From a virus, in IMG/VR virus record IMGVR_UViG_3300036944_000898, positions 1 to 64,000 of that record: a DNA stretch of 64,000 nt, one strand, 5' to 3'. Every line of letters starts with the position of its first letter. Within the stretch, counting starts at the first letter, position 1. Below are positions 7,409-38,825 of this stretch, piece after piece. Below the pieces are notes generated by a model, which saw only the letters and a list, made by a program, of their open reading frames with translations, was not told where the DNA came from and ran no database searches. A program made the translations under genes and the position numbers.

Positions 7409-7591
7409 ATGAATATAATAAAATACATAAAAAAGTTAATTAAAAAACAAAAACTTCTTAAAAAATATAAAAATGATCCTTTAACAATTTTTCAACTTAA
7501 AAAAATTTTAGAACAAGAAATGTTTGAAAAACATTATCTTAATCAAATATATTATGAAATAAGATGTTATAATAGGTTAAAAAAATTATGA
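7409..7591 (+). CDS. small basic hypothetical protein
   Basis: 60-aa ORF whose stop overlaps the primase start (ATGA). Confidence 0.5.
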   Translation: MNIIKYIKKLIKKQKLLKKYKNDPLTIFQLKKILEQEMFEKHYLNQIYYEIRCYNRLKKL

Positions 7592-8601
7592 TTAACTTAA
7601 ATAAAAAAATGGTTAATAAAGAACTGTTATTAAAATATATAACAGATTTAGAAATTTACCAAAAATATATTAATGAAGAAATAGTTCCTGGTAAAAATAT
7701 ATTATCACCATTTAGAAATGAAAATAATGCTTCATTTGGATTATTTAAAGGTGAAGGTGGTGAAATATGTTTTAAAGATTTTAAATTAGGTGGTGGAGAT
7801 TGTATTACATTTGTAAAAACATTATTTAATTTAACATATTTTGAAGCATGTTCTAAAATTGCAATTGATTTTGGAATGGGTGATGATTTTATTGTTAAAA
7901 AAATAAATAAAACTGAAACAAACAATATTATACCAATTAATAGAAATGAATTTTTACATAAAGCAGGTACTTTAAGTCTTCAAAAAACTAAAAGAGAATG
8001 GAAAGCTTATGACTTATTATATTGGCAAGAATATGGTATATCTTTAGATACTTTAAAGTTTTTTAATGTAGAACCAATTTCACATTTTTTTGTAAATGAT
8101 AAAATAATAACAGCAGATAAATATGCATATTGCTTTAAAGAATTTAAAGATAATAAAGAAACTTATAAAATTTATCAACCATTTAATAAAACATACAAGT
8201 GGATAAATAGTCATAATAATAGTATATGGCAAGGTTGGTCACAATTACCTAAAACAGGTGAAATTTTAATTATTACAAAATCATTAAAAGATGTAATGGC
8301 ATTATATGAAGTTGCTGGGATATGTTCAGTTTCTTTACAATGTGAAAACGTATTACCCAAACAACAAATATTTGAAGAATTAAGTAGTAGATTTTTAGAT
8401 ATTTATGTTTTTTATGATAATGATTATGATAAAGAAGAAAATTGGGGTCAATTATTTGCTCAAAAATTTAAAGAATCATTTAATGTTATGGATATAATAA
8501 TTCCAGATGAATACCAATGTAAAGATTTTTCAGATTTTATAAAAAAATATGGAATAGTAAAAGCAAAAGAATTAGTTAAATCACAAATAATACCTTTTTA
8601 A
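7588..8601 (+). CDS. DnaG/T7-type primase-like protein (degenerate Zn finger plus TOPRIM)
   Basis: SPFRNENNASFGLF..CFKDFKLGGGDCITFV aligns to the CPFHxExxPSF..CFGCG zinc-ribbon region. ILIITKSLKDVMAL and FYDNDYD resemble TOPRIM E and DxD motifs. Confidence 0.55.
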   Translation: MINLNKKMVNKELLLKYITDLEIYQKYINEEIVPGKNILSPFRNENNASFGLFKGEGGEICFKDFKLGGGDCITFVKTLFNLTYFEACSKIAIDFGMGDDFIVKKINKTETNNIIPINRNEFLHKAGTLSLQKTKREWKAYDLLYWQEYGISLDTLKFFNVEPISHFFVNDKIITADKYAYCFKEFKDNKETYKIYQPFNKTYKWINSHNNSIWQGWSQLPKTGEILIITKSLKDVMALYEVAGICSVSLQCENVLPKQQIFEELSSRFLDIYVFYDNDYDKEENWGQLFAQKFKESFNVMDIIIPDEYQCKDFSDFIKKYGIVKAKELVKSQIIPF

Positions 8602-8602
8602 A

Positions 8603-9007
8603 ATGACAATTATGAATAGATTACTTGCAGTATGTTGTGAATTAAGAGAAGATTTAATAAATCATAAAATATTAAAAGATTGTAAAAAAGTTGGTGAATT
8701 TTTATCAGCACCTGAATTTACATTAATTAATGTAGAACACAATAATACTAAAGTAGGATTAAAAAAAGGTTCTAACTCTGTTGTATTTGAAGTTTATGAA
8801 GTAAATGTTACAATTTTAGATAAAGTTTCAACATTAAAAGGTTTTTATCAACATAATTACAAAATAAACATTCATGATAAAGCAGTAATAGATACGCCTT
8901 TTGGAGTAGCATATACTTACTTAGAAAAACATACAAAAATAACATCTGATAATATCATAAAAGAATATGATTATACAGATTATTTAACATATAATATAAA
9001 TAAATAA
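8603..9007 (+). CDS. divergent GGCT-like protein (paralog of 991..1386)
   Basis: VVFEVYEVNVTILDKVSTLKG..IDTPFGVAYTYL parallels VTMEVYEVDEKTAERVDRLER..IETPYGEASVYIY. The N-terminal YGSL is replaced by CCEL. Confidence 0.45.
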   Translation: MTIMNRLLAVCCELREDLINHKILKDCKKVGEFLSAPEFTLINVEHNNTKVGLKKGSNSVVFEVYEVNVTILDKVSTLKGFYQHNYKINIHDKAVIDTPFGVAYTYLEKHTKITSDNIIKEYDYTDYLTYNINK

Positions 9008-9013
9008 AAAAAA

Positions 9014-9682
9014 ATGAAAAAAATAGGAATAGTTGGTTGGAAAACAGGAGATAATAGTTTTGGTGTTACTACACCGTATATTGAATGGTTAAGTAAATTT
9101 GGTATTGTTCAAGCTTTATCACCACAAAAAGGAATCGACGAAACAATTGATTTATTAGTATTACCTGGTGGTTTAGATATTGCACCACAATCTATGGGTC
9201 AAGTACCTGGATTTCTTACATCTAATACTGATGTAATGAAACAATACTTTTACGATAACAATTTAGATCAATATTTAGAAAAAGGTACTCCAATATTTGG
9301 AATTTGTTTAGGATTTCAACAACTATGTGTTAAATTTGGAGGACAATTAGTTCAAAATTATGGTTTTGCTTATTCTAATAAAGGAAGACATGAAAGAGTT
9401 GATTCTTTAAAAGTAGTTTCTAATGAATTATACAAAATTGTAGATGAAGTAAGTTTTAAAAAAGTTAAAAAATATGAAGTAAATTCATTACATCATCAAG
9501 GTTGTTTTTTAAAAGGAATTGAAGGTACATCTATTGAAGCTTTAGCTATTGATGATACTTTTGAAAATATAGAAATTGCTAAATTTAGTGAAAATGTATA
9601 TGGTGTACAATATCATCCAGAAGAAATAAATGACGGTTTATCAACATTAATTATTAAAAAATTATTAAACTATAATGAATAA
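9014..9682 (+). CDS. class I glutamine amidotransferase / peptidase C26 (gamma-glutamyl hydrolase, PuuD-like)
   Basis: Nucleophile elbow IFGICLGFQQL, SLHHQG, and VQYHPE (His-x-Glu of the triad). Confidence 0.7.
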   Translation: MKKIGIVGWKTGDNSFGVTTPYIEWLSKFGIVQALSPQKGIDETIDLLVLPGGLDIAPQSMGQVPGFLTSNTDVMKQYFYDNNLDQYLEKGTPIFGICLGFQQLCVKFGGQLVQNYGFAYSNKGRHERVDSLKVVSNELYKIVDEVSFKKVKKYEVNSLHHQGCFLKGIEGTSIEALAIDDTFENIEIAKFSENVYGVQYHPEEINDGLSTLIIKKLLNYNE

Positions 9683-10601
9683 CACAAAATTAATAGATAG
9701 TTCTAAATTATTTACAAGTCGAAAATCTGTTGTAAATAAAAAAAGTAAAGTAATAACACAATTTAGACCAATGATTTTGTCAAGACATCCTAGTCATGAT
9801 TGTCTTAGAGCGGGTACTAAAAATATTGTACCATTACCATATCGTTCTGTAATTAGATTTGGTTCTACAACAGAAGTTCCTGATACAATCACAAATGGTG
9901 GTAATAGAATTGAAATTAATACTATTCAAAGTATTAAAAATTCAGCAAATAAATTGTTAATGAAACAAAAGTTTCAACAAGCAGCAGTAAAAACAGCAGA
10001 ATGGATTTCATATGCTAATATAGAAACATTACGTGGATGGTCTTCTGAAAAATTTCCAATTGTAGCAAAAGCACATTTTGGTTCTAAAGGAAGAGGTAAT
10101 ACCTTATTAAAAACAGCTCAAGAATTAGATCAATGGTTAATAACAAATAGTCCTTCTAGTTATATTTTTGAAAAATTTATGAACTATGGTCATGAATTTA
10201 GATTACATGTTACTGAACAAGGTTGTTTTTATGCTTGTAGAAAAGCTTTAAAACAAGGTGTTGCTGACGAAGATAAATGGAGAAGACACGATGATATTTG
10301 TGTATGGTTTTTAGAAACTAATCCTGATTTTCAAAAACCTAATTCATGGAATGATATAGAAAAAGATTGTGTTTTAGCATTAAAATCTGTTGGTGCTGAT
10401 ATTTTATCTTTTGATGTAAGAGTTCAATCTCCTACAGATTCTAAAGGTAATCCTAGAGAATATCAAGATTATATTTTATTAGAGTGTAATTCTGCAAGTT
10501 CTATGGATAATGGTTCAGGAGAATTATCAGTATGTGCTAAAAAATATATTGAAGAAGTTAGAAAAGTAATCGTAAATAAAGCAAACAAAATTTCAAAATA
10601 A
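9675..10601 (+). CDS. ATP-grasp family ligase
   Basis: FPIVAKAHFGSKGRGNTLL, EKFMNYGHEFRLHV, and ILLECNSASSM (E-x-N metal site). Confidence 0.65.
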   Translation: MNNTKLIDSSKLFTSRKSVVNKKSKVITQFRPMILSRHPSHDCLRAGTKNIVPLPYRSVIRFGSTTEVPDTITNGGNRIEINTIQSIKNSANKLLMKQKFQQAAVKTAEWISYANIETLRGWSSEKFPIVAKAHFGSKGRGNTLLKTAQELDQWLITNSPSSYIFEKFMNYGHEFRLHVTEQGCFYACRKALKQGVADEDKWRRHDDICVWFLETNPDFQKPNSWNDIEKDCVLALKSVGADILSFDVRVQSPTDSKGNPREYQDYILLECNSASSMDNGSGELSVCAKKYIEEVRKVIVNKANKISK

Positions 10602-10602
10602 T

Positions 10603-11688
10603 ATGAAAAAAACATTAAATGTACATTTTAGTGCAAATTTAGTAGATGATTCTATTGTTAAATTTTTAAAACAAGAATTTGATATTAATATTGTAAATTT
10701 ATCTCAAAATGAAATAACTAATCCAAAAAAAGAATCTGTTGAATTATTAAAAACAATTGATTTAATTATTTTTACAGGTGGTGAAGATGTAAATCCTGCT
10801 TATTATGATGAAAGTATTGGAAAATATACACATATTAATAATAAAAGAGATAACTTAGAATTTAGTTTATTAAATCCTAGAAAATTACCATCTTCTATTA
10901 TACGTACAATTCCTAAATTGGGAATATGTCGTGGTGCTCAATTATTAACTGTTCATAATGGTGGAAAATTAATTCAACATGTTGAAGGTCATAAAAATAA
11001 TAATCAAGTAATTGAAGTTGTTGTAACAAGTGGATTAACAATAAATATTGAAGTTTCTTCAGACCATCATCAAATGATGTTTCCTTATAATTTACCAGAA
11101 AGTCATTATGAATTAATTGGATATTCTAAAAAATTCCAAAGTAATACATATTTAAATGGTGCAAATGAAGAAATTAAATTACCTAAAAACTTTTTAGAAC
11201 CTGAAATTATTTATTATAAAAATAAAAATTCATTATGTATTCAAGCACATCCAGAATGGTGTATTGGTTCTGAAGGTTCTAATTATTGTTTAAAATTAAT
11301 AAATAAATATTTATTAAAAAATGAAAACAAAAATGAAAAAAAATCTTTATATTCTTTACCTGAAGGATTACCAGAAGGTAATTTTCCATTAGGTTGGAAC
11401 GCATATGATATTCATGGTGTTCATTATAAATTTGATGGTGAAAGATTTATTGAAGCTGGAGAATTTAATCAAATAAATCTTCAAAAAAAAATTAATGAAT
11501 TAAAAAAGAAATCTTCAATTAGTCATTCATGGTCTGTACCTATTTATGATTCTTTTAATGAAAAAGGTGGAAAAACTGCTAATGAAATAAAATTACCAGA
11601 TATGGAGTATTACGCACCAATTGATATTGTTCAATTAGAACCTATATCACAAGAAACTGAAAGTAAAAATGAAACAAATATTTTTTAA
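10603..11688 (+). CDS. class I glutamine amidotransferase / C26-like protein with C-terminal extension
   Basis: LIIFTGGEDVNP, LGICRGAQLL (Cys nucleophile), IQAHPEW (His/Glu), plus ~120 extra C-terminal residues. Confidence 0.65.
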   Translation: MKKTLNVHFSANLVDDSIVKFLKQEFDINIVNLSQNEITNPKKESVELLKTIDLIIFTGGEDVNPAYYDESIGKYTHINNKRDNLEFSLLNPRKLPSSIIRTIPKLGICRGAQLLTVHNGGKLIQHVEGHKNNNQVIEVVVTSGLTINIEVSSDHHQMMFPYNLPESHYELIGYSKKFQSNTYLNGANEEIKLPKNFLEPEIIYYKNKNSLCIQAHPEWCIGSEGSNYCLKLINKYLLKNENKNEKKSLYSLPEGLPEGNFPLGWNAYDIHGVHYKFDGERFIEAGEFNQINLQKKINELKKKSSISHSWSVPIYDSFNEKGGKTANEIKLPDMEYYAPIDIVQLEPISQETESKNETNIF

Positions 11689-11705
11689 TTAAAAACATAA
11701 AATAA

Positions 11706-12512
11706 ATGAAAAAACACGAAATAAAATTAGGAAGCGATCCGGAAATATTTATTGAAAAAAATGGTGAAATTGTATCTGCTGTTGGAATGATTCCAGGTAC
11801 TAAAAACGACCCACATCCAATTACAAATAAAGGTCATTGTATTCAAACAGACAATATTGCGTTTGAATTTAACATTCCACCATGTAGTACTCCTGAAGAA
11901 TATGTTGAAAACATTAATTTTGTAAAAGAACATTTAGAAGTATTAGCTAAAGCTAATGGTTGTACATTATCTGCATTAGCTTCTGGAGAAATAAATCCTA
12001 TTTATTTACAAACAGAACAAGCTCAAACATTTGGTTGTGAACCAGATTTAAACGTTTATTTACAAGATGTTAATCCCGCTCTAAATTCTGATACAAACTT
12101 TAGATGTGTTGGTGGTCATGTTCATATTGGTTATCCAAATCCAGATTTTGAAGTTTCTGAAAGGATTGTTAAAATGTTTGATATGTTAGTAACTCTTCCA
12201 GCTTTATTGAAAGATAAAGATGATCAAAGAAGAAAACAATATGGTAAAGCAGGTTCATTTAGACAAAAAGATTTTGGTGTAGAATGTAGAGCTTTATCTA
12301 ATTTTTGGATTCATTCAGATAAATTAATTAAGTGGGTTTTTGAACAAACAGTTGAAGCTGTTGAAATAGTATTAAATAATGAAGATGAATCCTTTATTAA
12401 TAAATTTTCAGAACGTGTTCAAGAAACAATTGATTCAAACAATAAAGTTGAAGCAAAAATATTAATTGTTGAAATTGAAAAAGAAAAACAATTAAAATTA
12501 GTATTTGTTTAA
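11706..12512 (+). CDS. glutamine-synthetase-fold COOH-NH2 ligase (amidoligase)-like protein
   Basis: Motif series LGSDPEIF, IAFEFNI, GGHVHIGY, GVECRAL. This is the same E..E / HxH / ExR series as ORF 14517. Confidence 0.5.
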   Translation: MKKHEIKLGSDPEIFIEKNGEIVSAVGMIPGTKNDPHPITNKGHCIQTDNIAFEFNIPPCSTPEEYVENINFVKEHLEVLAKANGCTLSALASGEINPIYLQTEQAQTFGCEPDLNVYLQDVNPALNSDTNFRCVGGHVHIGYPNPDFEVSERIVKMFDMLVTLPALLKDKDDQRRKQYGKAGSFRQKDFGVECRALSNFWIHSDKLIKWVFEQTVEAVEIVLNNEDESFINKFSERVQETIDSNNKVEAKILIVEIEKEKQLKLVFV

Positions 12513-12543
12513 TATTAATTACAAAATAAAAAAAATATAAAAA

Positions 12544-14502
12544 ATGATACAAACAATATTAATATTATTATTATTGCATTATATTGGATTATACATCTTT
12601 AAACCCAAGCATAACACATTAAATTGTGGATTGTTTGGTTGGTCAGGTAAAGATGTTAAAAAATTCAATAAAGATAAATTTGACAAATTAGGAATTTTAA
12701 ATGTTGAAAGAGGAAAAAGTTCTTGTGGTATTGCTTTTGATGGTGATATACAAATTGGAATTGATTCTGAAAAACTTTATTATGATTTTATAGTAGAACG
12801 TGAAATTAAACCTGAAAGATTTCCTGTTGTAATTGGTCACACAAGACAAAATAGTGTAGGTTTAACAAATGTTTTTAATGCACACCCTTTTGGTTTTGAT
12901 GATAATAATGGTGATTATATATTTATAGGTGCACATAACGGTACTTTAAAAAATTATAAAGATTTAGCAAAACAATATGAAATTGATGAAACAATAGAAT
13001 CTCATCATTATGATAAAGATGGAAAAGAAACTGTTGTAAAAAGAGATAAAATTGATTCTGAAATTTTATTAGAAATTATATACAAACATAAAAACTTTAA
13101 AGTTTTAAGTGAATATATTGGTGGTGCAGCATTAGTTTTTACTGATACTACAAATCCTAATATTTTATATTTATTTAAAGGTAAATCTAAAGATTATAAA
13201 AGTAGTGCTTATGAATTAACAGAAAGACCTTTATTTGTTTATGTTGAAAATAAAAATTCAATGTATTTTTCTTCATTAGAAGATTCTTTAAAAACAATTG
13301 GTGGTAATGATGATAACATTATAGATATTGATCCAAATACTGTTTATAAAATAACAAATGGTGATTTTAAAAATGCTGAAAAAATAAGCGTTACAAGAAT
13401 AAATGCTGCACAAAATCCCAGTTACAGTTCTTCAAAAAGTTATGGACCAAATTATTCTGTTTTTGATGAAGAAGATTGGATAATGAATGGAAATCGTAGT
13501 GCTTTTAACGTAAAAAAGGAAAAAGAGGAAGAGAAAAGCACAAAAATAATAACTCTTCCAGCGGCAACAACCGTAAAAGAAAAAGAAAAAGAAAAAAAAG
13601 ATTTTAATATTTATGAAGATGAAACATTAAAACCAATTAATGATTATTATGGTCGTCCTTATTTTAATAAATTAAGATGGTGGAGAAATGGTCAATTACT
13701 TACAGGTATTCATGTTTGGATTAATAATTACGGTTATTATCCAATAGGTAGTACTACAAAAACAGCAAATGATAGATTTTGGTTATATACTGATAAAGTT
13801 TTTGACGGTAAAGAATTTATTATGGATGAAAGTATTACAGGTATTATACCATTTGAATCTTCTAGAATAATAGAACCACCATTATTTTATTTTGTAGAAG
13901 GTGTTCAAGTAAAAACAGCTATTGATTATTCTCATTTTTATCATAAATATACAATGATGCAAGATCGTACTAAATATTTAGATTACATTCAATTATCTCA
14001 AATTTCAACACATCCTGTTATTAATTTAAATTTTTCTAAAAAAGATAATAGTTTACAAAATATTGTAAAAAATGGTATTATTGTAGAAAGTCTTACTTGT
14101 ACATTAATTGGTGCTGATAAAATTTATACAATAAAAAAAGGAAATTTAGTTGATACTACAACAAATCTTTATTTTGCTAATTTTAAAGAAGATTTTTACA
14201 ATATAGAAAAAGAAGATGACAATATGATAGATATTAAAGATTATGTAAATATAAAATTAGATAAAGAATCTGAAATTTTAGAACAAAATGATGATGAACT
14301 TTTAGAAAACTTAGTAGCTAAAGAAAAAGAAAATAATCAGATAATTAGAGATTTATGTGAAGAAGATTTTACAGAACCTATTAAAGATTTTCAACAAATA
14401 AGAACAAAATTATTTAATAATTTTTCAGATAACTCATTAGCTATAAAAGTTATAAGTTTTGTAGATAATGCAATGAAAGACATGAAAGAATTTATAAATT
14501 AA
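12544..14502 (+). CDS. class II (Ntn) glutamine amidotransferase domain protein with hydrophobic pro-segment and large C-terminal extension
   Basis: NCGLFGWSG (Cys28), GHTRQNSVG and NAHPF resemble PurF/GlmS-type GATase. Residues 1-20 are strongly hydrophobic. A KE-rich linker is followed by ~300 aa of unknown function. Confidence 0.6.
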   Translation: MIQTILILLLLHYIGLYIFKPKHNTLNCGLFGWSGKDVKKFNKDKFDKLGILNVERGKSSCGIAFDGDIQIGIDSEKLYYDFIVEREIKPERFPVVIGHTRQNSVGLTNVFNAHPFGFDDNNGDYIFIGAHNGTLKNYKDLAKQYEIDETIESHHYDKDGKETVVKRDKIDSEILLEIIYKHKNFKVLSEYIGGAALVFTDTTNPNILYLFKGKSKDYKSSAYELTERPLFVYVENKNSMYFSSLEDSLKTIGGNDDNIIDIDPNTVYKITNGDFKNAEKISVTRINAAQNPSYSSSKSYGPNYSVFDEEDWIMNGNRSAFNVKKEKEEEKSTKIITLPAATTVKEKEKEKKDFNIYEDETLKPINDYYGRPYFNKLRWWRNGQLLTGIHVWINNYGYYPIGSTTKTANDRFWLYTDKVFDGKEFIMDESITGIIPFESSRIIEPPLFYFVEGVQVKTAIDYSHFYHKYTMMQDRTKYLDYIQLSQISTHPVINLNFSKKDNSLQNIVKNGIIVESLTCTLIGADKIYTIKKGNLVDTTTNLYFANFKEDFYNIEKEDDNMIDIKDYVNIKLDKESEILEQNDDELLENLVAKEKENNQIIRDLCEEDFTEPIKDFQQIRTKLFNNFSDNSLAIKVISFVDNAMKDMKEFIN

Positions 14503-14516
14503 AAGTTAAAAAAAAT

Positions 14517-16265
14517 ATGTCTAAAAAAAACATAACAACAATAAAAGGAGAAGAATTACCTATTTCCAAAGCTAAAAAGTTTCCAAATGGTTATTATAAA
14601 ATAGGTGATATTAATGTTGAAAATTCAGGAGATTGTTATAAAATTAATGATAAATTTTATAGATTTGAAACAGGTCAAATTGGTTTTAATTATTCAACTA
14701 AAAAATATCAATTATTAACAAATGATTTAATATTAGGTTTAGTTGAAGATAATAAATTTGCTTACTTTAGCATAAATGAACAAGATAAATTACCTATTGT
14801 TTTAGAAAACGGAACTAAAACATTTGTAATAAATGAAAAAGTTTTAAATAGTAATTTAAACTATAGAGAACGATTATCTACAGGTGAATTTGTTCATATT
14901 TCAAAATTAAATGCTAAAGATTTTAATAAAATTTTACTTCCTAAAAATGATTATAAAACAAGTTTACCATATGACTCAAATGGTATAACACAAAAATATT
15001 CTGATATTTATAATCACTTATATGATTCAAATATAAATACATATTCATATGGTTTAGGTAAATTTTTAAATAAATTAACATTTGGTTTAGAATTTGAAAC
15101 AACTGCTGGTTTTATTCCTGAAAGAATTACTAAAAAATTAGGATTAATTCCTTTAAGAGATGGTAGTATTCCAGGTTTAGAATATGTAACAGTTCCATTA
15201 TCTGGACCAAAAGGTGTTCAAACAGTTGTAGATATTTGTAAAGAATTAGAAAAAAGAACAGAGTTTGACAATTCTTGTGCCTTACATTTACATATTGGAG
15301 GTGTACCTAGAACACCTGAATTTATTTTAGCTTTTTTAAAATTAAGTTCTTGGATGCAAAATGATATTTTTACTTTATTTCCATTATATAAAAAATATAA
15401 TATGGGAATTAAAAATAAAAATTATAGTAAACCATATGATTTATTTGAAATTTTTAGTAAATTAGATTCTGTAATTAATAGTTCTAATATTAATAAGAAT
15501 TTTGATGTATTATTTTCATTTTTAACTTCAGGTAAAGCTACTTTTAATGATTATAATAATGATTTAAATAAAGTAGAAGTACATCCTTTAGATCCATCAA
15601 CACATCAAAAATGGAATATTAAAACAAGATATTTTTTACATAATTTTATTCCATTAATATTTGGTAATAAACAAACAATTGAATTTAGAATTCATACACC
15701 AACGTTTGATAATTACAGAGTTTTAATGTTTTTATTATTTAACAGCATGTTAATTAAATTTACTGAAAAATATCAAAATAAAATATTACAAGATCCTAAT
15801 TTTTTCAGATTAATCACAAACAATGGTGATTCACGTTCAAATTTATTTAATTTATTATATTTTTATAGAAATAACGAAAGTGTTACAAATGAAGTTAGTT
15901 CTTTAATTCGTTCATTATCTCATTATTTTCAGGTAAGAAAGTCAGAAACAGAAACTTTAACCAGAGATGGTAAAATTGAATTTGAAGATAAAGATATTAT
16001 ATTTAATCCTGACATTAATTTTGATTGTATTCGTCATATTCCTTGTGAAAAATCTAATATTAAGTTACAACCTGAATTACCAAGTTTAGAACCAGAAACA
16101 ATAAAAGAATTAGCAAATATTGTTTCTAAAAAACCAATTAATACTAAAGGTTTAGTTGAACAAATAAAAGAAACTTTAAACGGTGAATTTAAAGTTGAAT
16201 CTCCATTTTTATGGTATGAAGAATTTGAAAAACAACAAATAGTTAGAGTAAATAAAAATAAATAA
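14517..16265 (+). CDS. amidoligase (Amidoligase_2-like, GS fold) with N-terminal extension
   Basis: FGLEFETTAG, RDGSIPGLEYVTVPL, CALHLHIGG, TIEFRIHTPT. Confidence 0.6.
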   Translation: MSKKNITTIKGEELPISKAKKFPNGYYKIGDINVENSGDCYKINDKFYRFETGQIGFNYSTKKYQLLTNDLILGLVEDNKFAYFSINEQDKLPIVLENGTKTFVINEKVLNSNLNYRERLSTGEFVHISKLNAKDFNKILLPKNDYKTSLPYDSNGITQKYSDIYNHLYDSNINTYSYGLGKFLNKLTFGLEFETTAGFIPERITKKLGLIPLRDGSIPGLEYVTVPLSGPKGVQTVVDICKELEKRTEFDNSCALHLHIGGVPRTPEFILAFLKLSSWMQNDIFTLFPLYKKYNMGIKNKNYSKPYDLFEIFSKLDSVINSSNINKNFDVLFSFLTSGKATFNDYNNDLNKVEVHPLDPSTHQKWNIKTRYFLHNFIPLIFGNKQTIEFRIHTPTFDNYRVLMFLLFNSMLIKFTEKYQNKILQDPNFFRLITNNGDSRSNLFNLLYFYRNNESVTNEVSSLIRSLSHYFQVRKSETETLTRDGKIEFEDKDIIFNPDINFDCIRHIPCEKSNIKLQPELPSLEPETIKELANIVSKKPINTKGLVEQIKETLNGEFKVESPFLWYEEFEKQQIVRVNKNK

Positions 16266-16268
16266 TTA

Positions 16269-16709
16269 TTGGAAAACGAATTAATATTCATTCCTTTTAA
16301 TGTACCATCATTAAAGAATTCCAAAATAAAAACCTCAAGAGGAATATTTCCTTCTAAAACAGTTAAAAATTATCTTACAGATTTAGGTATTCAAAGATAT
16401 TCAGCTTCTCGTAAAGAAGTAGTTGGATATAAAACAAAACCTAATAAATTTCAAGAATTAAGAGAAATATTTAATAAATCTTTAGAAGGAAAAGAACTTC
16501 CTGTAGAAATAGGTTTTCATTTTGTAAGAAAAACAAAGCATAAATTTGATTTTAATAATGCAAATCAAATTATAGCTGATTTACTTACAGCTCATGGAAT
16601 TATTGAAGATGATAATATGGATTATTTTATTCCATATGCGTTTAAAATGAATGATAAATTTTACACAATAGACAAGGAAAATCCTGGCGTCTATTTACAA
16701 ATAAAATAG
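16269..16709 (+). CDS. rusA: RusA-family Holliday junction resolvase
   Basis: KFDFNNANQIIADLLTAHGIIEDDN aligns with the RusA D-x-D-N..K...D.L...G...DD block. Apparent TTG start. Confidence 0.6.
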   Translation: MENELIFIPFNVPSLKNSKIKTSRGIFPSKTVKNYLTDLGIQRYSASRKEVVGYKTKPNKFQELREIFNKSLEGKELPVEIGFHFVRKTKHKFDFNNANQIIADLLTAHGIIEDDNMDYFIPYAFKMNDKFYTIDKENPGVYLQIK

Positions 16710-26382: not shown

Positions 26383-29300
26383 TTATTTATTTATTAATGA
26401 ATATCTTTGTTTATATGTATTCATAAATAATGATTTACCAGGTGCTAATTTAAAAGCATGGTTTAACATTATATTTTCATCTTTAGAATTTTCACTTAAC
26501 CAATCAAGATAACTTTCATTATCTTTAGGATTAAAATTAATAGGTGTCATAATATCGTTTATTACAGTAAATCCGTTTTGTAAAAACCTATTTGCTGCAA
26601 CAGGATTACTAATCATTCTATTTAACTCGGCAATATTTCTAAATTGAGAAAGTTCAGATTCTAATCTTCTAAATGCAAATAATAAAAAATATAGTTCATC
26701 ATCATCACCTGCATTAGCCGCCATTATAGCTCCTAAAAGTGGTAATATGATAGCTGTCATGGATACTTCAAAAAATACTTGTTTCAAATTAGCTTTTTCA
26801 TAATCAGAAAGATTTTTAAAATTTTCCTTAGTCATTTGTAAATTTAAATGTCTAATTAAAGGAAAAAACGTTCTAACAAAAGTAGTATAAATACCTTCTG
26901 TAAATTCTTGTTCTGCATTATTAAATGTTAAGTCTTCATCATCTAATTCATCTTTAGATTTATTTGCTGTACCTATACCTTTATATCTATATTGTGCTTG
27001 TGATAAAAAGAAGTTTTTAAACATTAAAGCCATTTTACCATACCATTTTTTAGATATTTCAGCTTTCATATTGTTATCATAAACACCATATAAATCTTCT
27101 ACTTTTTTCTTTAATAAATAGTTTATAGATTGTTTTCCTGATGTGTGATAATTATCAACTAAATTATATTCAGAATATGTAAAATAATCTTTTGTTTTTA
27201 AAATACCATTATCATCTAAATATAACATATCAAATATAGAAGCGGCATTTTCTTTAGTTGTAATATTACCTTCTTTATCAATATATTTATGTTCTTTATT
27301 CATAACAGGTATTGAACGTAACATTGCTTCTGTTAAAATAGAATTTAACCCGTGTTCTACAGATTCATTAATAAAATTAGTATTATGTAAAGACATCATT
27401 TCTTTAATAGTACTATTATTAAGAAAATCTTGTTTATTAATATTCATTCCACCAATAATATCGAACATATTTAACATTTGATTATGAAATGATTTTTTAA
27501 CAGGATTGGAAATATCTGCCATAATTTTAGGTAAATTTGCAGTATAATTTGCTTCAGCTTTAGCTAAATTTGATTTATTAATATATTTTCCACCAATTCT
27601 TAACATAAGCATCATAGTTTGACCATTAAGAAAATTGACAAAACCACTACCTATATTCAAAGACATACCTACAAAAGCAGCAGCTCCATTAATTCTAGAT
27701 GTTAATTTATTAGCATCTAAACTTCCAAATAATTTTTCTTCATTATAAGAAGTTACATCATATAAAGCTGTTTCTAGTATACCTTTGATTTTTTCTGCTT
27801 CATTACTAAATTCACCTGAGAATGTTTGACCTTGAACTTCTTCTTTTGAAAATATATTTTTAGCCCATTTACCAGAAAGTAAAGATTTCTTTTTATATTC
27901 TTTTTCTTTAGCAATATCTAAAAATAATTTTAATTTATTTTCATTAGCTGAACGATGTTTAAATGAAATAGAGTTAGATTCTTCAGCTCTATATACTGTA
28001 AATAAATCTAAAGACTGATCTTTAGATTCTAATTTACCTCTAAAATTAATTTGTACACGTTTAAGTTCTTCTCCTCTGTTATCAAAAGCTTGACCATAAT
28101 TTATATCGTCAACTTTAGTTTCTTTTAAATCAGTCCAAGCATCTTTAGCTTGACCTTTAAAATCACCTTCTAAAGTTCTTTCTTTTGCAGATTTAGTTTT
28201 AGATGGTAATTTATAATATTCTGCACCAAAAAATGTAGAATATAAACCACCTTTACCTTTATAATTTAATTCATGATTACTTTTAGTTTGTGTTCTAAAA
28301 AAATCTAAAACTTTTTCTTCTTCAGTAGATAATGGTTTATTTAAATATTTATTAGAAGGTTTTCTATTACCTAATTCATCAAACATAGTGTTATTTTTAA
28401 TCCATTTTTTATATTCAGGATCTTCTTTAACATTAAAGTCTTCATTATCTTTATTTTTTTCATTTAAAGAATTTAACATTTTATTGTAATCTTCTTTAAA
28501 TTTAATAGAATATTTACTTTTTAAATAATATCTATCTTCAGATTTATTTAACTCTAGTAAATTACCATATTTTTTAGACATTGAAACTGAATTATTAAAA
28601 TCAGAATATGATTTAAATATTTTATCATACTTAAAATTAATTGCAGTAATATCTTTTAATATAACATCTCTCATTTTACCAACAACATTAGCCATCATAT
28701 TTATTAAAGGACTATTAATATTTAATAAATCAGACCAAGTTTTAGCAAAACTTGTAATATCAATATAAGGATTATTTATTATACTTTTAGCAGCATCTTC
28801 TAAATCTTTTTTAATAGCTTCAGCATATTTATTAGACATTTGACTACCAACCCATTCTAATTTAGATTCTTTAGGATTTGTTAATTTATCATACTCTAAT
28901 GATAATTTATTTTTCCATTTGTTAATAACTTTTTTATTTGTTGAAGCATCTGAAAATAATTTAATTGCAGATTCTTTTTTAAGTTTTTTAATTTTAGCAA
29001 TTAAATCATCATGTGGTTTTGAAAGCTCATTTATTTTAGTTTTTATAATTCTAATTTCTAATTTATCTTCACGACTTAATGTTGAATCTTTTAATGTATC
29101 ATCAATTAATGATTTTATATCATCTAATAAATCATATGAAGCTAAATAATCTTCATAATTATTTGCGACATCTAAATAATCTTTATTAGATAATTGAGTA
29201 ATAGATTCATTTTCAATATTATTGTATAATTCAGAATCTACAATAAATTTATTAGCTTTAAAAAATGTTTTATCTACAGTATCTTTAACATCTTCAGGAA

Positions 29301-31218
29301 TTATAAATTCTCCTTTTTCATTTTTAAAACCATCAAAGTTTTTTACTTTAATATGTTTTTCTCCATTATAAACAACATCGATAACTTTAAATTTATTTTC
29401 TAAACCTTTTTCTAATTTATAAATTGCATTTTTAAAAGAAACCATATAAGCAGTAATAGCTTTAAATTTATTTAAACCAGATAACCTTTCTAATTCATTT
29501 TCTAAAACTCTAAATTCTTCTAAAAATTCTCCCGCTTTTTCTTTATTAGATTTTTTAGTTCTATTAATTAACTCAGCAATTTTACTTTTAGCTTTATTAA
29601 CTAAATGTTCAGCTTTTTTATCAATAGTTTCTAATTCATATGTTTCAGACGGTTCAATCTGTTTTTCAAATATTAATTGTTTTTGACTAGACATACCTTG
29701 ATAATCTCGTCTATCTGATTCTACAAAATCAATTACTTTTTCAATTAAATCATTAGTTTTTTTAGATTTAACTAGACCAAACAATCTTCTAATAGCATTT
29801 ATAAAATTATCCCAAAATCTATATCTTTTTTGTTCATCTAATTTTTTTAATTCAGCTCTAAATTTTGGATTAGCATATATTTCAGATACAAATTCAAATT
29901 TATTTGTAAAACCATAAAATCTTTCTTGACCATAAGTTTCAATATTTTGGTCAATTTGTTTTTGAAGATCATTGTGTGAAAATACATAATACGCTCTTTC
30001 AATAAAATTATTAAATTCTTTTTCTTCAAATGTTTGAGGATTTTTTAAAGCTTGTATTGTTTGAGCGTGAGCTAATTCATGTAAAAAACCTTCAACAACT
30101 TCTTTAGTTGTTATATTTTTAATTCTATTTCTACTTATTTGAATTGTGTTTGTATTATTTACAATTTGCATTAAAGTATTTTTATTACTTAATTGTTCAT
30201 CAGATACAAATTGAAATTTAGCACCAGTTCTACCAACTAATTTTCTAGCTTTTTGAATTAATTCTTTACCTTCTGGAGTAAAATCATTAAAATTATTAAG
30301 AATATTTTCAAGAATTTCATCTACAGTAATCTTACCTTGTTTATTATTAAATAAAATTTTATTATGTTCAGAAATATAATCTTTTTTTAATTGATTTACT
30401 TTATCTTCTATAAATAAAACACCTTTTAATAATCCTTTTTTAATTATATTTTCACTAAATATAGATTCGTTTTCTTCAGATTCAAATTTAGATAAATCTT
30501 TTTTAGTTGTTTCTTTATCATCTAAAACATCTTTAAAAGGCGCTTTATTTAAATAACTTTGTAAATTATATTCTTTTATTCTTTCTTTCCAACTTAAAAT
30601 ATGTTCAGAATTTAATCTAAAATTATTAGATTCATTTTCTAAATATTCATCTTCCATTGCATCAAATTCAGCATCTTCCATTGCCCAAGCCATATTAGAT
30701 GCTTTTTTAATATCATATTCTGATAAATTTGGAAAAACTTCTTTTAATATTTCTAAAAGATTATTATAATTTTGCAAATGTTTATTTTTAGTTTCTTCAT
30801 CAGAAGAATCTTTTGAAAATCTATAAGAATCTGCTAATTGGGCAAATACTCTAGTTGGTAATTTATTAAAAGCATTTTGAGAAATATATTTAGCTCCTTT
30901 TTCATTTGGATAAGGTCTAATTGTATTAGTTTCATCATATTCTTCTTTTGTTAATCTCGGATTATCTAATACAATATTATCTATAAAAATTTTAACATCA
31001 TCTCTATTAGATAAAGATTGTATTTTATTTTCTAAAGATTCTGAAATATTAGTAAATATTTTTTTAGATTGATTTAATTCATCAATAGTAGGAAATCTAT
31101 CTTCTATATTATTTTTACTTTGCCACAAACCTATTTTTGCAGCAGCAACAACAGGAGAAACATTTAATTCTCCTGCTATTTTAGCTACATCTGGATGATT
31201 TTTATTTATACAACTCAT
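26383..31218 (-). CDS. giant virion/ejection-type protein with zincin HExxH motif and C-terminal membrane segments
   Basis: 1611-aa ORF. FLHELAHAQT is encoded at 30067-30081. Hydrophobic stretches occur near the C-terminus (..AIILPLLGAIMAANAG..). Confidence 0.6.
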   Translation of the reverse strand: MSCINKNHPDVAKIAGELNVSPVVAAAKIGLWQSKNNIEDRFPTIDELNQSKKIFTNISESLENKIQSLSNRDDVKIFIDNIVLDNPRLTKEEYDETNTIRPYPNEKGAKYISQNAFNKLPTRVFAQLADSYRFSKDSSDEETKNKHLQNYNNLLEILKEVFPNLSEYDIKKASNMAWAMEDAEFDAMEDEYLENESNNFRLNSEHILSWKERIKEYNLQSYLNKAPFKDVLDDKETTKKDLSKFESEENESIFSENIIKKGLLKGVLFIEDKVNQLKKDYISEHNKILFNNKQGKITVDEILENILNNFNDFTPEGKELIQKARKLVGRTGAKFQFVSDEQLSNKNTLMQIVNNTNTIQISRNRIKNITTKEVVEGFLHELAHAQTIQALKNPQTFEEKEFNNFIERAYYVFSHNDLQKQIDQNIETYGQERFYGFTNKFEFVSEIYANPKFRAELKKLDEQKRYRFWDNFINAIRRLFGLVKSKKTNDLIEKVIDFVESDRRDYQGMSSQKQLIFEKQIEPSETYELETIDKKAEHLVNKAKSKIAELINRTKKSNKEKAGEFLEEFRVLENELERLSGLNKFKAITAYMVSFKNAIYKLEKGLENKFKVIDVVYNGEKHIKVKNFDGFKNEKGEFIIPEDVKDTVDKTFFKANKFIVDSELYNNIENESITQLSNKDYLDVANNYEDYLASYDLLDDIKSLIDDTLKDSTLSREDKLEIRIIKTKINELSKPHDDLIAKIKKLKKESAIKLFSDASTNKKVINKWKNKLSLEYDKLTNPKESKLEWVGSQMSNKYAEAIKKDLEDAAKSIINNPYIDITSFAKTWSDLLNINSPLINMMANVVGKMRDVILKDITAINFKYDKIFKSYSDFNNSVSMSKKYGNLLELNKSEDRYYLKSKYSIKFKEDYNKMLNSLNEKNKDNEDFNVKEDPEYKKWIKNNTMFDELGNRKPSNKYLNKPLSTEEEKVLDFFRTQTKSNHELNYKGKGGLYSTFFGAEYYKLPSKTKSAKERTLEGDFKGQAKDAWTDLKETKVDDINYGQAFDNRGEELKRVQINFRGKLESKDQSLDLFTVYRAEESNSISFKHRSANENKLKLFLDIAKEKEYKKKSLLSGKWAKNIFSKEEVQGQTFSGEFSNEAEKIKGILETALYDVTSYNEEKLFGSLDANKLTSRINGAAAFVGMSLNIGSGFVNFLNGQTMMLMLRIGGKYINKSNLAKAEANYTANLPKIMADISNPVKKSFHNQMLNMFDIIGGMNINKQDFLNNSTIKEMMSLHNTNFINESVEHGLNSILTEAMLRSIPVMNKEHKYIDKEGNITTKENAASIFDMLYLDDNGILKTKDYFTYSEYNLVDNYHTSGKQSINYLLKKKVEDLYGVYDNNMKAEISKKWYGKMALMFKNFFLSQAQYRYKGIGTANKSKDELDDEDLTFNNAEQEFTEGIYTTFVRTFFPLIRHLNLQMTKENFKNLSDYEKANLKQVFFEVSMTAIILPLLGAIMAANAGDDDELYFLLFAFRRLESELSQFRNIAELNRMISNPVAANRFLQNGFTVINDIMTPINFNPKDNESYLDWLSENSKDENIMLNHAFKLAPGKSLFMNTYKQRYSLINK

Positions 31219-31221
31219 ACA

Positions 31222-31575
31222 TTATTTTTTTAAAAATCTTAATTTATATAAAGTAGATGAAAGTAATTCAATAATATCATCACTAATTTGTTGAAGATAA
31301 CCATCTTCCAATGTTAATCTATAATCTTCTACAGATTTAACACATTCTTTTAAATATGGTATAATTTCAACACCTTCTTTTAAAGTTATTTTATAACCTG
31401 TTATTATTTTATATTTACCTTGATAAGATTCTATAAATCTATCTCTTAACTCAACTATTTCTTGATATAAATCATTCAAAGCCATATGATCTGAAAATTT
31501 ATCAGTCTGTAAATGAGCTATATGACTATTTATTTCTATATCAAATAGTAAACTTGCAAATTCTTGTATTTTCAT
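31222..31575 (-). CDS. small four-helix, Dps/ferritin-like protein
   Basis: SHIAHLQTDKFSDHMALNDLYQEIVELRDRFIE resembles the Dps H..W...G..F..H..F..Y..D..E pattern. ATG at 31575 overlaps the upstream TAA (TAATG). The track TTG start at 31584 is less likely. Confidence 0.4.
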   Translation of the reverse strand: MKIQEFASLLFDIEINSHIAHLQTDKFSDHMALNDLYQEIVELRDRFIESYQGKYKIITGYKITLKEGVEIIPYLKECVKSVEDYRLTLEDGYLQQISDDIIELLSSTLYKLRFLKK

Positions 31576-34500
31576 TATAAACAATTTTCAATTATGTGTT
31601 CTCTTTCTTCATTATTCATAGAATTAAAATCAGCTTCAGTTCTACCAGATTCAATCCATTTATCTTTAATTTCTTCCCAAAGTTGCTTATCTTGTTCAAG
31701 TTGATCAAATAAAGATAATTGATTAGGATTTTTATAATTTTTTAAAACATCTTCTTCTGATAATAAATTAAAATCTTTTGTATTTAAAAATAATCGTAAA
31801 GCTTCTTTTTCTTCAATTGATTTAGCTTTAATATAATCTTCATAAATATCTTTAATTGACATCTGACTATAATCATAACCATTATTATCTTCCTCTACAT
31901 AATAATTTGTTAAAAATTCTGTTTCAGATCCATTTTCTAAAACTCTTTCAGGATTATTAAAAGCTTCTTCAATATTATCTTTTGTAATAGTTTCACCTAA
32001 AACATTATCTAAATCTTTACCATATTGTTCTTTACTTAATAAAGTAAATTTATTTTTAGGATTTAAAAGTTGTTCTTTAATATTATTATCATCAATTTGT
32101 TTAAAAAATTCATCAGAATATTTAATAACTTCAGATTTAACTTCTTGTTTAGTTTCAATAGATTGTTTAATTTCTTGTTCTTGATTAACAATAGGTTGTT
32201 CTGTTTTTAACATATTTTCATCAAAGTTATTTAAATCTAATTCTACGTTATAATTATTAGATACAGGTGTATTTTTGATTTTAACATATATAAATTTATC
32301 TGTTTTAGATATACCAACTAATCTATAAAATTCTTCATTAACTTTAATAAATTGACCTTTATTTGTTGTAGATTGTAATACAAATTTATTATTAAGAGTT
32401 TCTTTTAAATCTGAATCAAAAACATTTTTAACAATACTTGTATCTGTTAAATTATTAAGATAAAATTTATTTTCAAATTCTTCAAAATTAGATTTATTAA
32501 ATATATCTTTAACTTTATTATTAATATTTAATTTAATAAAATATTGATAAGGAATATAAGAATAAAATTGAGTTCTATTTGAATTAAATCCTGAAGTTAA
32601 AAAACTATATTTAACTAATTGTTCTGCAAAATCTGGGTGATCTTCAAATAATTGTTCCCAAGAATTAGTAAATAATCTTTGAAATTCTAAAGATCTATCA
32701 GAATTATTTAAACCAATTTTATCATTAGAAATATTAAGGTTGTCTATTATAAAATATTTATCTTTAACATCTTCTTTAAAATTTTGTAAAGTTTTATGAG
32801 TATTATCTAATATATTTTCTTTTTCAGTATCTTGTATATCAAAAACTTTAGAATAAATATATGTTTTAAATTGTCTTGATAATTTTTCATAAATTTCTTC
32901 TTTTTTAGAATAAGATTTAGTTATATCATCGACCATAACACTTAACAGATTTCTAACATTTTCATTAGACATTGGAAACATTGAAGAATTTTTTTCTAAA
33001 ATATCTTTAATTTTTAAAAGATTATTATAATATTTAGATAAAATAGTATTTTGTAACTTAGAATCAAATCCTTTTATAATACCTTTAATAGGTTTATTAT
33101 TTTCATCTGTAGTTTTTTCACTATTTATTTTAATTTCATCAAGTAAACTTTCTAAATAGAATATTCCATTTGGATCTTTACCAACACCATTAACATCTAA
33201 TTTACCAAAATCAACAATAGTTTTTAAATTTTTACTAGAATTTTGAATATTTCTAAATTCATTCAATAATGTGATTTGAAAATTTAAATTAGTATTTTTT
33301 TCATTTTTAATTTGATTTCTAAAATATTGTAAATCTAATTTAAATTCACCATACTGACTTATCATTCTATCAAATAAATTTAAAGATTCTGGTTTATAAA
33401 CTTGATTATAAAAACTAGAAGCTAAATTAAAAAATTTATTATAATCTTCTTCACTATTATTTAAACGTTTAATAACTTCAGTTTTTACATTATCTCTTTT
33501 CTTTAATATATCAACATTATCTTCTAATTCTGAAATATTTAAATCATTAAAATATTGTACATATAAGGATGAATAAATTGGTTTACCACCTTTTTCTTCA
33601 TCACCAATAAAATCTTGAATAATAAATTGTTTAAACTTATTAAAAGTATCACCTGATTGATTATCAAACAATCCTTCATTATCTTGTTGATATTGATTGT
33701 ATCTTGAAATAATAGGATTTGCTAAAAAATTTACTACATATAACGGATGTACACCCATTCTAATCATTAAATTACCTACATTAGTAGTAGATGTAGTCCA
33801 GTTACCTTTTGAAATATAAGGATCTTTAGCAATATCCACAAAAGCATTAAGAATAGTTCCTAACGTTTCACCAATTTTAACTTTTTTAATTGTTTTTTTA
33901 AATTCTTCAATTCTTTCTTTTGGTGCTTTTGAATCAATCATTTCAGAAACATAATAGTTTAAATCTTCTTCAGATAATTCTTCAGAATATTCCATATCTA
34001 ATTCAGTTTCTTTATTAATCATATTATAATTACCCCAAGTGAAATTAGCTAAATTTGAAATTATTAATTTACCAGTTCTCCAAATATCAGTCATAGCATT
34101 AGCTTCCATACCAACACCTGCTTTACCACCTAAAAAAGAATATCTTAATTTAACATCATCTCTAGGATTCATAGCATTCATAAAAGAATTAGATTCTTCA
34201 GGTTTTAAATTATTTATTTCTTTTTTAATGAAATCATTATCAATAGATTTCATTAAATCACTATATACTTCAGGATTAGTTAATACTGATTTATATATTT
34301 CAATAAGTTTATTTTGCTCACCTTTAGCTCCTTTTGTAGAATATTGTAAACCTGTTGTTGTAAAATTTAAATCTTTAAATGTTAATTTTACTTGTTTAGA
34401 TTCTGAATTATTAACAATAAAATTAATTAATTCTTTTCTTATATTTCTTAAAAATAAAGTTTTATCTTCTTTATTTTCAACATTATTATATTCTGAAATA

Positions 34501-38822: not shown

Positions 38823-38825
38823 ATT

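Follow-up and report, generated by a model that had tools for sequence, protein, structure and literature searches.

A seven-gene amidoligase cassette in the replication block of a putative crAss-like phage

Among the most widespread multi-enzyme cassettes of lytic phages is the amidoligase module, known since 2009. PMC10580990 and PMC11706807 attribute the module, together with a speculative role in cell wall modification and superinfection exclusion, to Iyer et al. (2009), and PMC5498523 and PMC11945000 credit Hardies et al. (2013) with its elaboration as a "peptidoglycan modification cassette". Here we describe a seven-gene cassette at positions 8603-16265 of a 64-kb window, by which we mean the whole stretch of DNA analyzed (positions 1 to 64,000 of IMG/VR virus record IMGVR_UViG_3300036944_000898). 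Judged from its sequence, the cassette is the crAss-like-phage version of the "amidoligase" or "peptidoglycan-modification" module of phiEco32, LUZ24 and RIO-1, and not a new type of system. We propose, with moderate confidence, that the module is a cytoplasmic pathway for amide-bond formation with a small amine or a peptide as acceptor, by gamma-glutamyl or glutamine chemistry. An earlier reading of the DNA from its letters alone (the original prediction) had pointed to comparative surveys of phage amidoligase neighborhoods, which these four papers bear out, and had named no experimental function; full-text searches of the literature likewise gave us no biochemical or genetic characterization of the module. 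The novelty of the cassette was overstated in that prediction, however, since the module is a recognized one, is already annotated in the Crassvirales phages phi14:2 and cr108_1, and comes with a published peptidoglycan hypothesis that went unmentioned.

Layout and relatives of the cassette

The cassette consists of seven tightly packed plus-strand open reading frames (ORFs), exactly where they were predicted, with intergenic gaps of -8 to +31 nt. The components are three ATP-dependent carboxylate-amine ligases (ATP-grasp, COOH-NH2 and Amidoligase_2), three cysteine amidohydrolases of folds that recognize glutamine or gamma-glutamyl amides (two of the C26 type and one N-terminal nucleophile [Ntn] enzyme) and a GGCT, a cyclotransferase of the gamma-glutamylamine type. 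The flanking genes, identified with Pfam and PHROG, are a primase gene at 7588-8601 on one side and RusA (16269) and exonuclease (16969) genes on the other, in agreement with the predicted location between primase and recombination functions. The label "early" was an assumption; what is seen is a position within the replication/recombination block. Terminator-like sites within the cassette number two against 1.6 expected by chance, and promoter and terminator scans are uninformative at the 24% G+C content of this DNA.

The cassettes of phiEco32 (Kuravirus), LUZ24 (Bruynoghevirus), PA11, RIO-1 and 7-11 share with the window the PF14395 and PF12224 families, as well as a long-tailed class II glutamine amidotransferase (GATase), a RimK-like ATP-grasp protein and an AIG2/GGCT protein, and they occupy a similar position, in the pre-replication or replication block beside a primase gene. 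The gene order differs from that of LUZ24 and SU10: the window has GGCT and ATP-grasp at the start of a cassette that follows a DnaG-type primase gene, whereas the LUZ24 and SU10 cassettes precede a T7-type primase/helicase gene. The window also departs from this group in having two C26 genes, an Ntn enzyme with a hydrophobic leader, and a degenerate GGCT paralogue. At the C26 position, LUZ24 and SU10 have an unannotated gene encoding ~190 to 205 residues without a Pfam match, and 5' of the ligase they have two more unannotated genes (~320 to 400 residues each) with no detectable counterpart in the window. Unannotated proteins of ~300 to 400 residues in LUZ24, SU10 and cr108_1 have no Pfam match and no phmmer link to one another or to the window. 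We also note that a DUF7195 protein of ~75 residues is encoded directly 3' of the class II amidotransferase (GAT-II) gene in LUZ24 (gp20; L085 11047-11268) and SU10 (gp084; L086 11647-11880); we found no counterpart in the cassette gaps, flanking small ORFs or C-terminal tails of the window. The EDYFE tail of LUZ24 gp20 resembles what we take to be the EDWGE tail of LysW, and a LysW-like carrier or tag was rejected as a candidate, as SU10 gp084 ends otherwise and nothing similar is present in the window.

Among cultured phages, the one closest to the window is Cellulophaga phage phi14:2 (Crassvirales, Steigviridae), in which, as in cr108_1, the order primase, GGCT, ATP-grasp, COOH-NH2 ligase, GAT-II, amidoligase, RusA and exonuclease is directly syntenic with the window (phi14:2 g037-g041), with protein identities of 33-41%. 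A protein identical to GAT-II is on record from a contig of 101,567 bp, and a Logan contig encoding this protein has an ORF layout that matches the window. Because of the phi14:2 synteny and identities and the layout of the Logan contig, we read the source as an uncultured crAss-like phage. Relatives are found at the protein level only, and megablast of the cassette against GenBank phages gave no nucleotide match. phi14:2 has no C26 genes, and cr108_1 departs from the shared order in lacking GGCT and having two paralogous proteins of 300 to 330 residues instead. Both have a uracil-DNA glycosylase gene between amidoligase and RusA, where the window (16265-16269) has none.

Across ~80 IMG/VR contigs, many of them 90 to 105 kb, cassette order and composition are conserved: primase, GGCT, (C26a), ATP-grasp, (C26b), COOH-NH2 ligase, GAT-II and amidoligase, usually followed by RusA and exonuclease. 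GGCT is near-universal in these loci, there are zero to two C26 copies, and the COOH-NH2 ligase, GAT-II and amidoligase genes keep a fixed order wherever one of the 80 loci spans all three. With the window's protein as query, phmmer did not find ATP-grasp in four loci; for one of these, L072, the LUZ24 protein as query revealed a divergent ATP-grasp. The module occurs in a large clade of crAss-like phages, often on contigs of ~100 kb, and is a constant component of the replication block throughout a whole crAss-like lineage; its reach extends well beyond these phages. A tblastn search found a COOH-NH2 ligase homologue in 315 of 50,697 GenBank phage records, whose hosts include Pseudomonas (121 records), Escherichia (94) and Vibrio (22), as well as Aeromonas, Proteus, Salmonella and others; similar annotated gene sets are present in phi14:2, cr108_1, Lbo-JY46, LUZ24, SU10, phiM6 and Privateer. 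The cassette adjoins a primase or primase/helicase gene in Crassvirales, LUZ24, SU10 and phiM6. In IME180, ~4 kb separate the COOH-NH2 ligase homologue from a primase/helicase gene on its downstream side, and the stretch is otherwise unannotated; in Privateer the cassette is upstream of the ribonucleotide reductase gene. Leptolyngbya phage Lbo-JY46 (L003 1-3679) has the cassette directly after PncB (nicotinate phosphoribosyltransferase) and PrsA (phosphoribosyl pyrophosphate [PRPP] synthetase), an NAD/PRPP salvage context with no primase. Cellular genomes, taken as one per species for 185,579 species, have a relative on just 11 contigs of metagenome-assembled genomes; we take these to be mis-binned phage contigs, and they offer neither a bacterial operon context nor a hint of the host. 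PADLOC defense models gave zero matches.

Ligases and amidohydrolases

Profile searches (Pfam, PHROG and NCBIfam) support the predicted ligase and hydrolase classes, with structure prediction adding to the cases of GAT-II and the amidoligase, and the motifs quoted in the original prediction are all present and conserved. In the NCBIfam scan of the cassette proteins, every match is far below the equivalog cutoff, and therefore no specific enzyme name can be transferred. Catalytic residues were followed in alignments of 45 to 79 homologues per protein (40 for the Ntn domain) from the 80 IMG/VR loci. The catalytic positions of all six enzymes other than the 8603 protein are essentially invariant in these alignments, and the six are under purifying selection and look active. 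None of the seven proteins has a signal peptide or membrane segment, with the exception of the Ntn leader, and apart from that leader the six enzymes are soluble. Usable AlphaFold2 (AF2) models are those of the 652-residue GAT-II protein and the 582-residue amidoligase.

The gene at 11706..12512 (plus strand) encodes a phiEco32-type COOH-NH2 ligase type 2 of the GCS/GS superfamily, which matches PF14395 (Pfam, 8.8e-10, above cutoff) and PHROG 3815 (2.8e-71) and is 38% identical to LUZ24 gp16; all 75 aligned homologues keep E13, E54, H138, E193 and R195. The last gene of the cassette (14517..16265, plus strand) encodes an Amidoligase_2 protein, a GS/GCL-fold carboxylate-amine ligase, with matches to PHROG 2443 (5.5e-37) and PF12224 (7.6e-5; 23.1 bits against a cutoff of 22), the latter shared by all 40 aligned homologues. 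Its N-terminal part forms an all-beta domain (residues 1-130) and its C-terminal tail is disordered in part; residues E192, E194, D215, E222, H257, H259, E389 and R391 are invariant (79/79 homologues). The best Foldseek matches of its AF2 model (predicted local distance difference test [pLDDT] 82.6, predicted template modeling score [pTM] 0.79) are to GCL (2gwc), YbdK (1r8g) and a GS homologue (4hpp), all weak with E values of 0.02 to 0.1; in the PDB, neither ligase family has a solved relative by sequence. In several related loci, one or other of these ligase genes is split into two ORFs. This is so for the COOH-NH2 ligase in L014, L015, L031, L033 and L082, and in L031, L048, L081 and L083 the amidoligase match spans ~2.2 to 2.4 kb for ~420 to 490 residues. 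The split genes suggest an inserted intron, homing endonuclease element or frameshift; HNH genes are present inside the cassettes of UFV-P2 and phiM6.

The third ligase (9675..10601, plus strand), the gene for which overlaps the 3' end of C26a by 8 nt, is a RimK/PurK-like ATP-grasp carboxylate-amine ligase by its match to PHROG 2599 (4e-24). The Pfam ATP-grasp match (3.9e-4) is under the gathering score, those to NCBIfam PurK (3.3e-8) and rimK_fam (4.6e-8) are below cutoff, and sequence matches in the PDB are marginal. K132, E174, R176, H178 and E270 are nonetheless invariant in 75 of 75 homologues, with N272 present in 63 of them. That the RimK family is nearest raises the question as to whether the cassette tags or polyglutamylates a host or phage protein, in a RimK- or pupylation-like manner, and whether GGCT and the amidohydrolases erase the modification again. 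The Pup ligase has a GS fold and GGACT cleaves gamma-glutamyl-epsilon-lysine, both of which count in favor of such a role, and the 2009 abstract of Iyer and colleagues is said to discuss peptide-tagging systems. We consider tagging decidedly unlikely, however, since there is no small tag-like ORF within or beside the cassette in the window, and the DUF7195 protein of LUZ24 and SU10, itself absent from the window, does not have a conserved C-terminal Glu or Gln. Moreover, the Ntn and GGCT enzymes need a glutamyl group with a free alpha-amino group, so that small molecules fit better than polypeptide tags.

C26a (9014..9682, plus strand) is a cysteine amidohydrolase of the class I glutamine amidotransferase fold (Pfam Peptidase_C26, 7.7e-25), with a Cys98-His201-Glu203 triad kept in 44 to 45 of 45 homologues. 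Of the solved structures matched, Lin1909 and a "probable glutamine amidotransferase" (7d4r) are closest to C26a, and PuuD (6vtv) is another; its best NCBIfam matches are the PabA, GuaA and TrpG glutaminase subunits. The second C26-type amidohydrolase, C26b (10603..11688, plus strand; Peptidase_C26, 6.3e-19; PHROG 7218, 3.5e-34), has its triad, Cys109-His216-Glu218, in 63 to 67 of 67 homologues and ends in a variable, low-complexity tail (about residues 240-361), the homologues being mostly ~210 to 403 residues long. Against the NCBIfam PuuD model, C26a and C26b score 30 and 23 bits, respectively, where the cutoff is 266.

The GAT-II protein encoded from 12544 (652 residues; Pfam GATase_6, 1.2e-7; AF2 mean pLDDT 81.5) begins with a hydrophobic 27-residue leader, MIQTILILLLLHYIGLYIFKPKHNTLN (12544..12624, plus strand), that precedes the Ntn cysteine. 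This is the sole transmembrane-like segment among the seven proteins (KD19 = 2.08) and is modeled by AF2 as a helix over residues 2-18. With no Met ahead of Cys28, the leader has to be translated, and we suppose that its removal at Asn27/Cys28, perhaps by autoproteolysis, would be required for activity. Roughly half of the crAss-like homologues, including that of phi14:2, have a leader, and the remainder start Met-Cys. A Met-Cys start is seen in cr108_1 and Lbo-JY46 and, by implication of the PHROG alignment, in the other phage families in those models. The domain that follows (residues 28-290; 12625..13413, plus strand) is an Ntn class II glutamine amidotransferase or gamma-glutamyl amidohydrolase domain, with Foldseek matches to the glutaminase domains of GlmS, GFAT, PurF, AsnB and EgtC (E values of ~1e-10 to 1e-6). 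Residues C28, R101, N132, G133 and D171 are invariant in 40 homologues and presumably correspond to Cys1, Arg73, Asn98, Gly99 and Asp123 of Escherichia coli GlmS, which we take to bind the free alpha-amino group and alpha-carboxylate of the glutamyl moiety.

A disordered 56-residue linker (residues 295-350; AF2 pLDDT <50) joins the Ntn domain to a family-specific C-terminal region (13594..14502, plus strand) composed of an alpha/beta domain (351-555) and a long helical hairpin (583-651), modeled with pLDDT of 83-95 across most of residues 351-540. No Pfam family matches this domain consistently across 40 homologues, and it is of no known synthase (acceptor) type; in Foldseek searches with the whole chain, matches to the N-terminal domain prevail. 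When 1.84 billion representatives were scanned exhaustively with HMMER, the C-terminal domain turned up in 119 proteins, nearly all of 500 to 720 residues with the domain at ~300-550, the rest being short fragments, and it is thus confined to one architecture. Conservation in the domain falls chiefly on Gly, Pro and aromatic residues, which suggests binding or scaffolding more than a second active site.

Three ligases accompanied by three GATase-fold proteins could also mean glutamine-dependent amidation, in which the glutaminase-type proteins feed ammonia to the ligases and carboxylates are converted to carboxamides. Amidation of this kind is carried out by MurT/GatD, AsnB and CobB/CobQ. The constant order of COOH-NH2 ligase, GAT-II and amidoligase in all spanning loci, the glutaminase subunits that top the NCBIfam matches of C26a, and the full glutamine-binding set retained in the Ntn domain are all in keeping with it. 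Nonetheless, the near-universal GGCT has no role in ammonia transfer, the number of C26 genes varies from zero to two while the ligase set is constant in most loci, Peptidase_C26 outscores GATase in Pfam, and a disordered linker of 56 residues between the Ntn and C-terminal domains is ill-suited to an ammonia channel. We therefore regard amidation as a rather unlikely account of the module.

The hydrophobic leader bears on the published proposal that the module remodels peptidoglycan peptides, attributed to Iyer (2009) and Hardies (2013) and repeated in PMC5498523, PMC11945000 and PMC10580990. The ligases would rebuild or alter the stem peptide of cytoplasmic wall precursors, with its gamma-glutamyl and D-Ala-D-Ala-like bonds, GGCT and the amidohydrolases would recycle it, and the gain for the phage would be either a block to superinfection or a wall made ready for lysis. 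The three ligase types have a parallel in the unusual linkages of the stem peptide, and the leader could put the Ntn enzyme at the inner membrane, the site of lipid II synthesis, which is mildly compatible. However, the cassette has no Mur ligase, transpeptidase, flippase or secretion signal, the module is located in replication blocks and not in lysis blocks, and the amidoligase and GATase pair is also present in a virus of Poseidoniales archaea, which lack murein (PMC11706807). Remodeling of the wall thus seems doubtful to us.

GGCT proteins and the proposed pathway

The window encodes two GGCT proteins, and the original prediction of a canonical enzyme at 991 and a GGCT-like protein at 8603 holds in full for the first; for the second, homology is borne out and catalytic competence is not. 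The 991..1386 gene (plus strand) encodes an AIG2-like, YtfP-type GGCT/GGACT (Pfam GGACT, 6.3e-18; PDB YtfP 1xhs, 9e-20) with YGSLR and the Glu of LERY intact, so that both GGCT features are present. It scores 150 to 178 bits against the canonical second GGCT of a tandem-GGCT clade, a match to the cassette GGCT of a sister clade which argues that the working GGCT of the cassette sits 7.2 kb upstream; the 991 protein is orthologous to the GGCT that related phages have inside the cassette, and is displaced by that distance. Substrates of the GGACT/YtfP subfamily are gamma-glutamyl-amines (Oakley 2010, as quoted in a citing preprint). Directly 3' of the canonical GGCT is an ORF of 194 residues (1396-1980), with a weak match to a 5'-nucleotidase family (Pfam, 0.0024, below cutoff).

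The 8603..9007 gene (plus strand) encodes a degenerate paralogue, related by BLASTP to the 991 protein (5e-15) and to phi14:2 g037 (3e-12), which has CCELR in place of YG(S/T)LR and LKGF in place of LEGY, the latter replacing the catalytic Glu with Lys. It matches neither the Pfam GGCT/AIG2 models nor any PHROG family. The cassette-resident GGCT is in this respect unlike that of phi14:2. Degenerate motifs of the CCELR/LKGF type are common to the relatives L005-L007 (L004 is the same phage in another assembly), and because three distinct relatives have them, the degenerate state is kept rather than decaying. The protein is probably a pseudoenzyme or a binding subunit. Canonical and degenerate GGCT genes are paired in several crAss-like clades (L005-L018), in some of them in tandem, with a GxYDDYR-type protein of 163 to 246 residues followed by a canonical GGCT of 134 to 140 residues; in this phage the two genes are apart, the degenerate one being in the cassette and the canonical one 7 kb upstream, and Sinorhizobium phage phiM6 has two GGCT genes as well. 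The pairing suggests a heteromer or a binding-only paralogue.

In the amide-forming pathway that we favor, the cassette genes would be co-transcribed with the replication genes, and their products would be active in the cytoplasm, with a short peptide or an amine of low molecular weight as substrate. The ligases would form up to three amide bonds, with a gamma-glutamyl group or glutamine-derived nitrogen serving as a transient handle or nitrogen donor, and a gamma-glutamyl handle could then be removed as 5-oxoproline by GGCT or as glutamate by the C26 and Ntn enzymes. The logic of this scheme is modeled by analogy on BtrJ/BtrG, PuuA/PuuD and EgtA/EgtC. GGCT is near-universal in the module, which argues for at least one gamma-glutamyl-amine intermediate, and the Foldseek matches of the Ntn domain include EgtC, a gamma-glutamyl amidohydrolase, besides true amidotransferases. 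As substrate, we rank a polyamine-type amine or an amino-acid or peptide amine first, with DNA and proteins lower.

Several observations weigh against this pathway. First, no substrate-specific domain was found, in line with the original statement that no substrate is evident, and the C-terminal domain of GAT-II and the N-terminal domain of the amidoligase have no recognizable relatives. Second, gamma-glutamyl "make and break" chemistry and plain glutamine-dependent amidation are indistinguishable by sequence. Third, the cassette has no oxidase, transferase or carrier for a step between ligation and deprotection. Fourth, since C26 copies vary from zero to two and ATP-grasp was not found in some loci, the pathway is not fixed. 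Lastly, searches of the literature gave no experiment in any phage in support of a product.

The enzymes could also be tied to replication itself and have nothing to do with the wall, neutralizing or conjugating polyamines or another amine and so either shielding replication, perhaps against a polyamine-based host response, or yielding a new conjugate associated with DNA or the replisome; regulation would then fall to the pseudo-GGCT and to the Ntn enzyme with its leader. We raise this because the module neighbors a primase gene in replication modules of both the DnaG type (Crassvirales) and the T7 type (LUZ24, Kuravirus, phiM6) and the nearest characterized relatives of its proteins handle gamma-glutamyl-amines, and think it quite unlikely. 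An auxiliary role in nitrogen or glutamine metabolism, raising the amino-acid supply of the host as claimed for "Phage-ZRK32", strikes us as extremely improbable. A phage preparation with amidoligase, GATase, GGCT and "glutathione synthase" genes is reported to have boosted bacterial growth on nitrate or ammonium (PMC10945688), but that study gives no gene-level or enzymatic evidence; no cassette protein reaches the equivalog cutoff of any NCBIfam metabolic enzyme, and seven genes with three unrelated ligases are excessive for glutamine supply. Identification of the product of the module would annotate hundreds of phage genomes and might reveal new host-takeover chemistry; LUZ24 (Pseudomonas aeruginosa) and the Kuraviruses (E. 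coli), rather than this uncultured phage, are tractable for this question.

Genome surroundings and comparison with known systems

The window has a G+C content of ~24%, and a plus-strand block of replication, recombination and nucleotide-metabolism genes extends to ~26 kb. The position of the cassette in this block, next to a primase or primase/helicase gene as in Crassvirales, LUZ24, SU10 and phiM6, would accord with post-replicative hypermodification of DNA or of the nucleotide pool with an amino-acid, polyamine or amide substituent, one of the products originally suggested. Lee et al. also describe, in viromes, amidoligase and amidotransferase genes that adjoin thymidine-hypermodification genes (PMC8989533). 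The window disfavors this candidate, and we think it very unlikely. First, it encodes an ordinary ThyX (PF02511, 1.1e-34), and no 5-HMUDK, aGPT-Pplase, DpdA, hydroxymethylase or glycosyltransferase was named by Pfam or PHROG among the ORFs tested in the 26-kb plus-strand block, several of which matched nothing. Second, palindromes are depleted: GATC has an observed/expected ratio of 0.43 (z of about -7), GATATC and GGTACC are absent where 11.5 and 7.9 are expected, and GAATTC occurs 11 times where 28 are expected; in the whole window the ratios for CATG and CTAG are 0.56 and 0.57. Such strong avoidance argues, if indirectly, that the DNA is exposed to restriction enzymes. To our knowledge, phages of the LUZ24 and phiEco32 types are sequenced and cut routinely, with no modification reported.

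Beyond ~26 kb, the genes are on the minus strand and include ORFs of 1486 to 2415 residues; the sign of the GC skew flips at the same place as the coding strand. Three consecutive minus-strand ORFs at 26383-44534 (1611, 2415 and 1902 residues) have no PHROG family at an E value of 1e-5 or below, and a 1486-residue ORF at 49262-53722 (minus strand) matches a virion structural protein family (4e-284). A gene like that for a DNA polymerase exonuclease subunit (55745-56677, minus strand; PHROG 403, 1.2e-56) stands apart from the plus-strand replication block, in surroundings that we take to be structural genes.

The systems to which the proposed pathway is most readily compared are those that pass through a gamma-glutamyl intermediate: butirosin biosynthesis, with BtrJ (ATP-grasp) and BtrG (GGCT); the Puu/Pau pathway of polyamine catabolism, with a GS-type ligase (PuuA/PauA) and a C26 hydrolase (PuuD/PauD); and the ergothioneine pathway, with EgtA (GCS) and EgtC (Ntn GAT-II). 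BtrJ/BtrG, PuuA/PuuD and EgtA/EgtC have the same fold pairs as the cassette, one member making and the other removing a gamma-glutamyl amide, and PuuD and EgtC are sequence or structure neighbors of cassette proteins, with the GS homologue 4hpp a weak neighbor of the amidoligase. The Puu/Pau gene set itself was not found, there being no glutamine-synthetase-family match and no oxidase or dehydrogenase named among the scanned neighbors. Analogous folds are also present in the gamma-glutamyl cycle and glutathione enzymes GshA, GshB, GGT and GGCT, namely a GCS-superfamily ligase, an ATP-grasp protein, an Ntn hydrolase and GGCT. However, the Ntn enzyme of the window is of the class II amidotransferase type and not GGT, its GGCT is of the GGACT/YtfP amine subtype, and no cassette protein matches the GshA or GshB families in Pfam or NCBIfam. 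In contrast to the Btr, Puu and Egt systems, the cassette lacks an oxidase, dehydrogenase, acyl carrier and sulfoxide synthase, and it combines three types of ligase and three types of hydrolase in a single operon. To the module as already described, the window adds a conserved pseudo-GGCT, a 27-residue hydrophobic leader, and a GAT-II C-terminal domain of one architecture.

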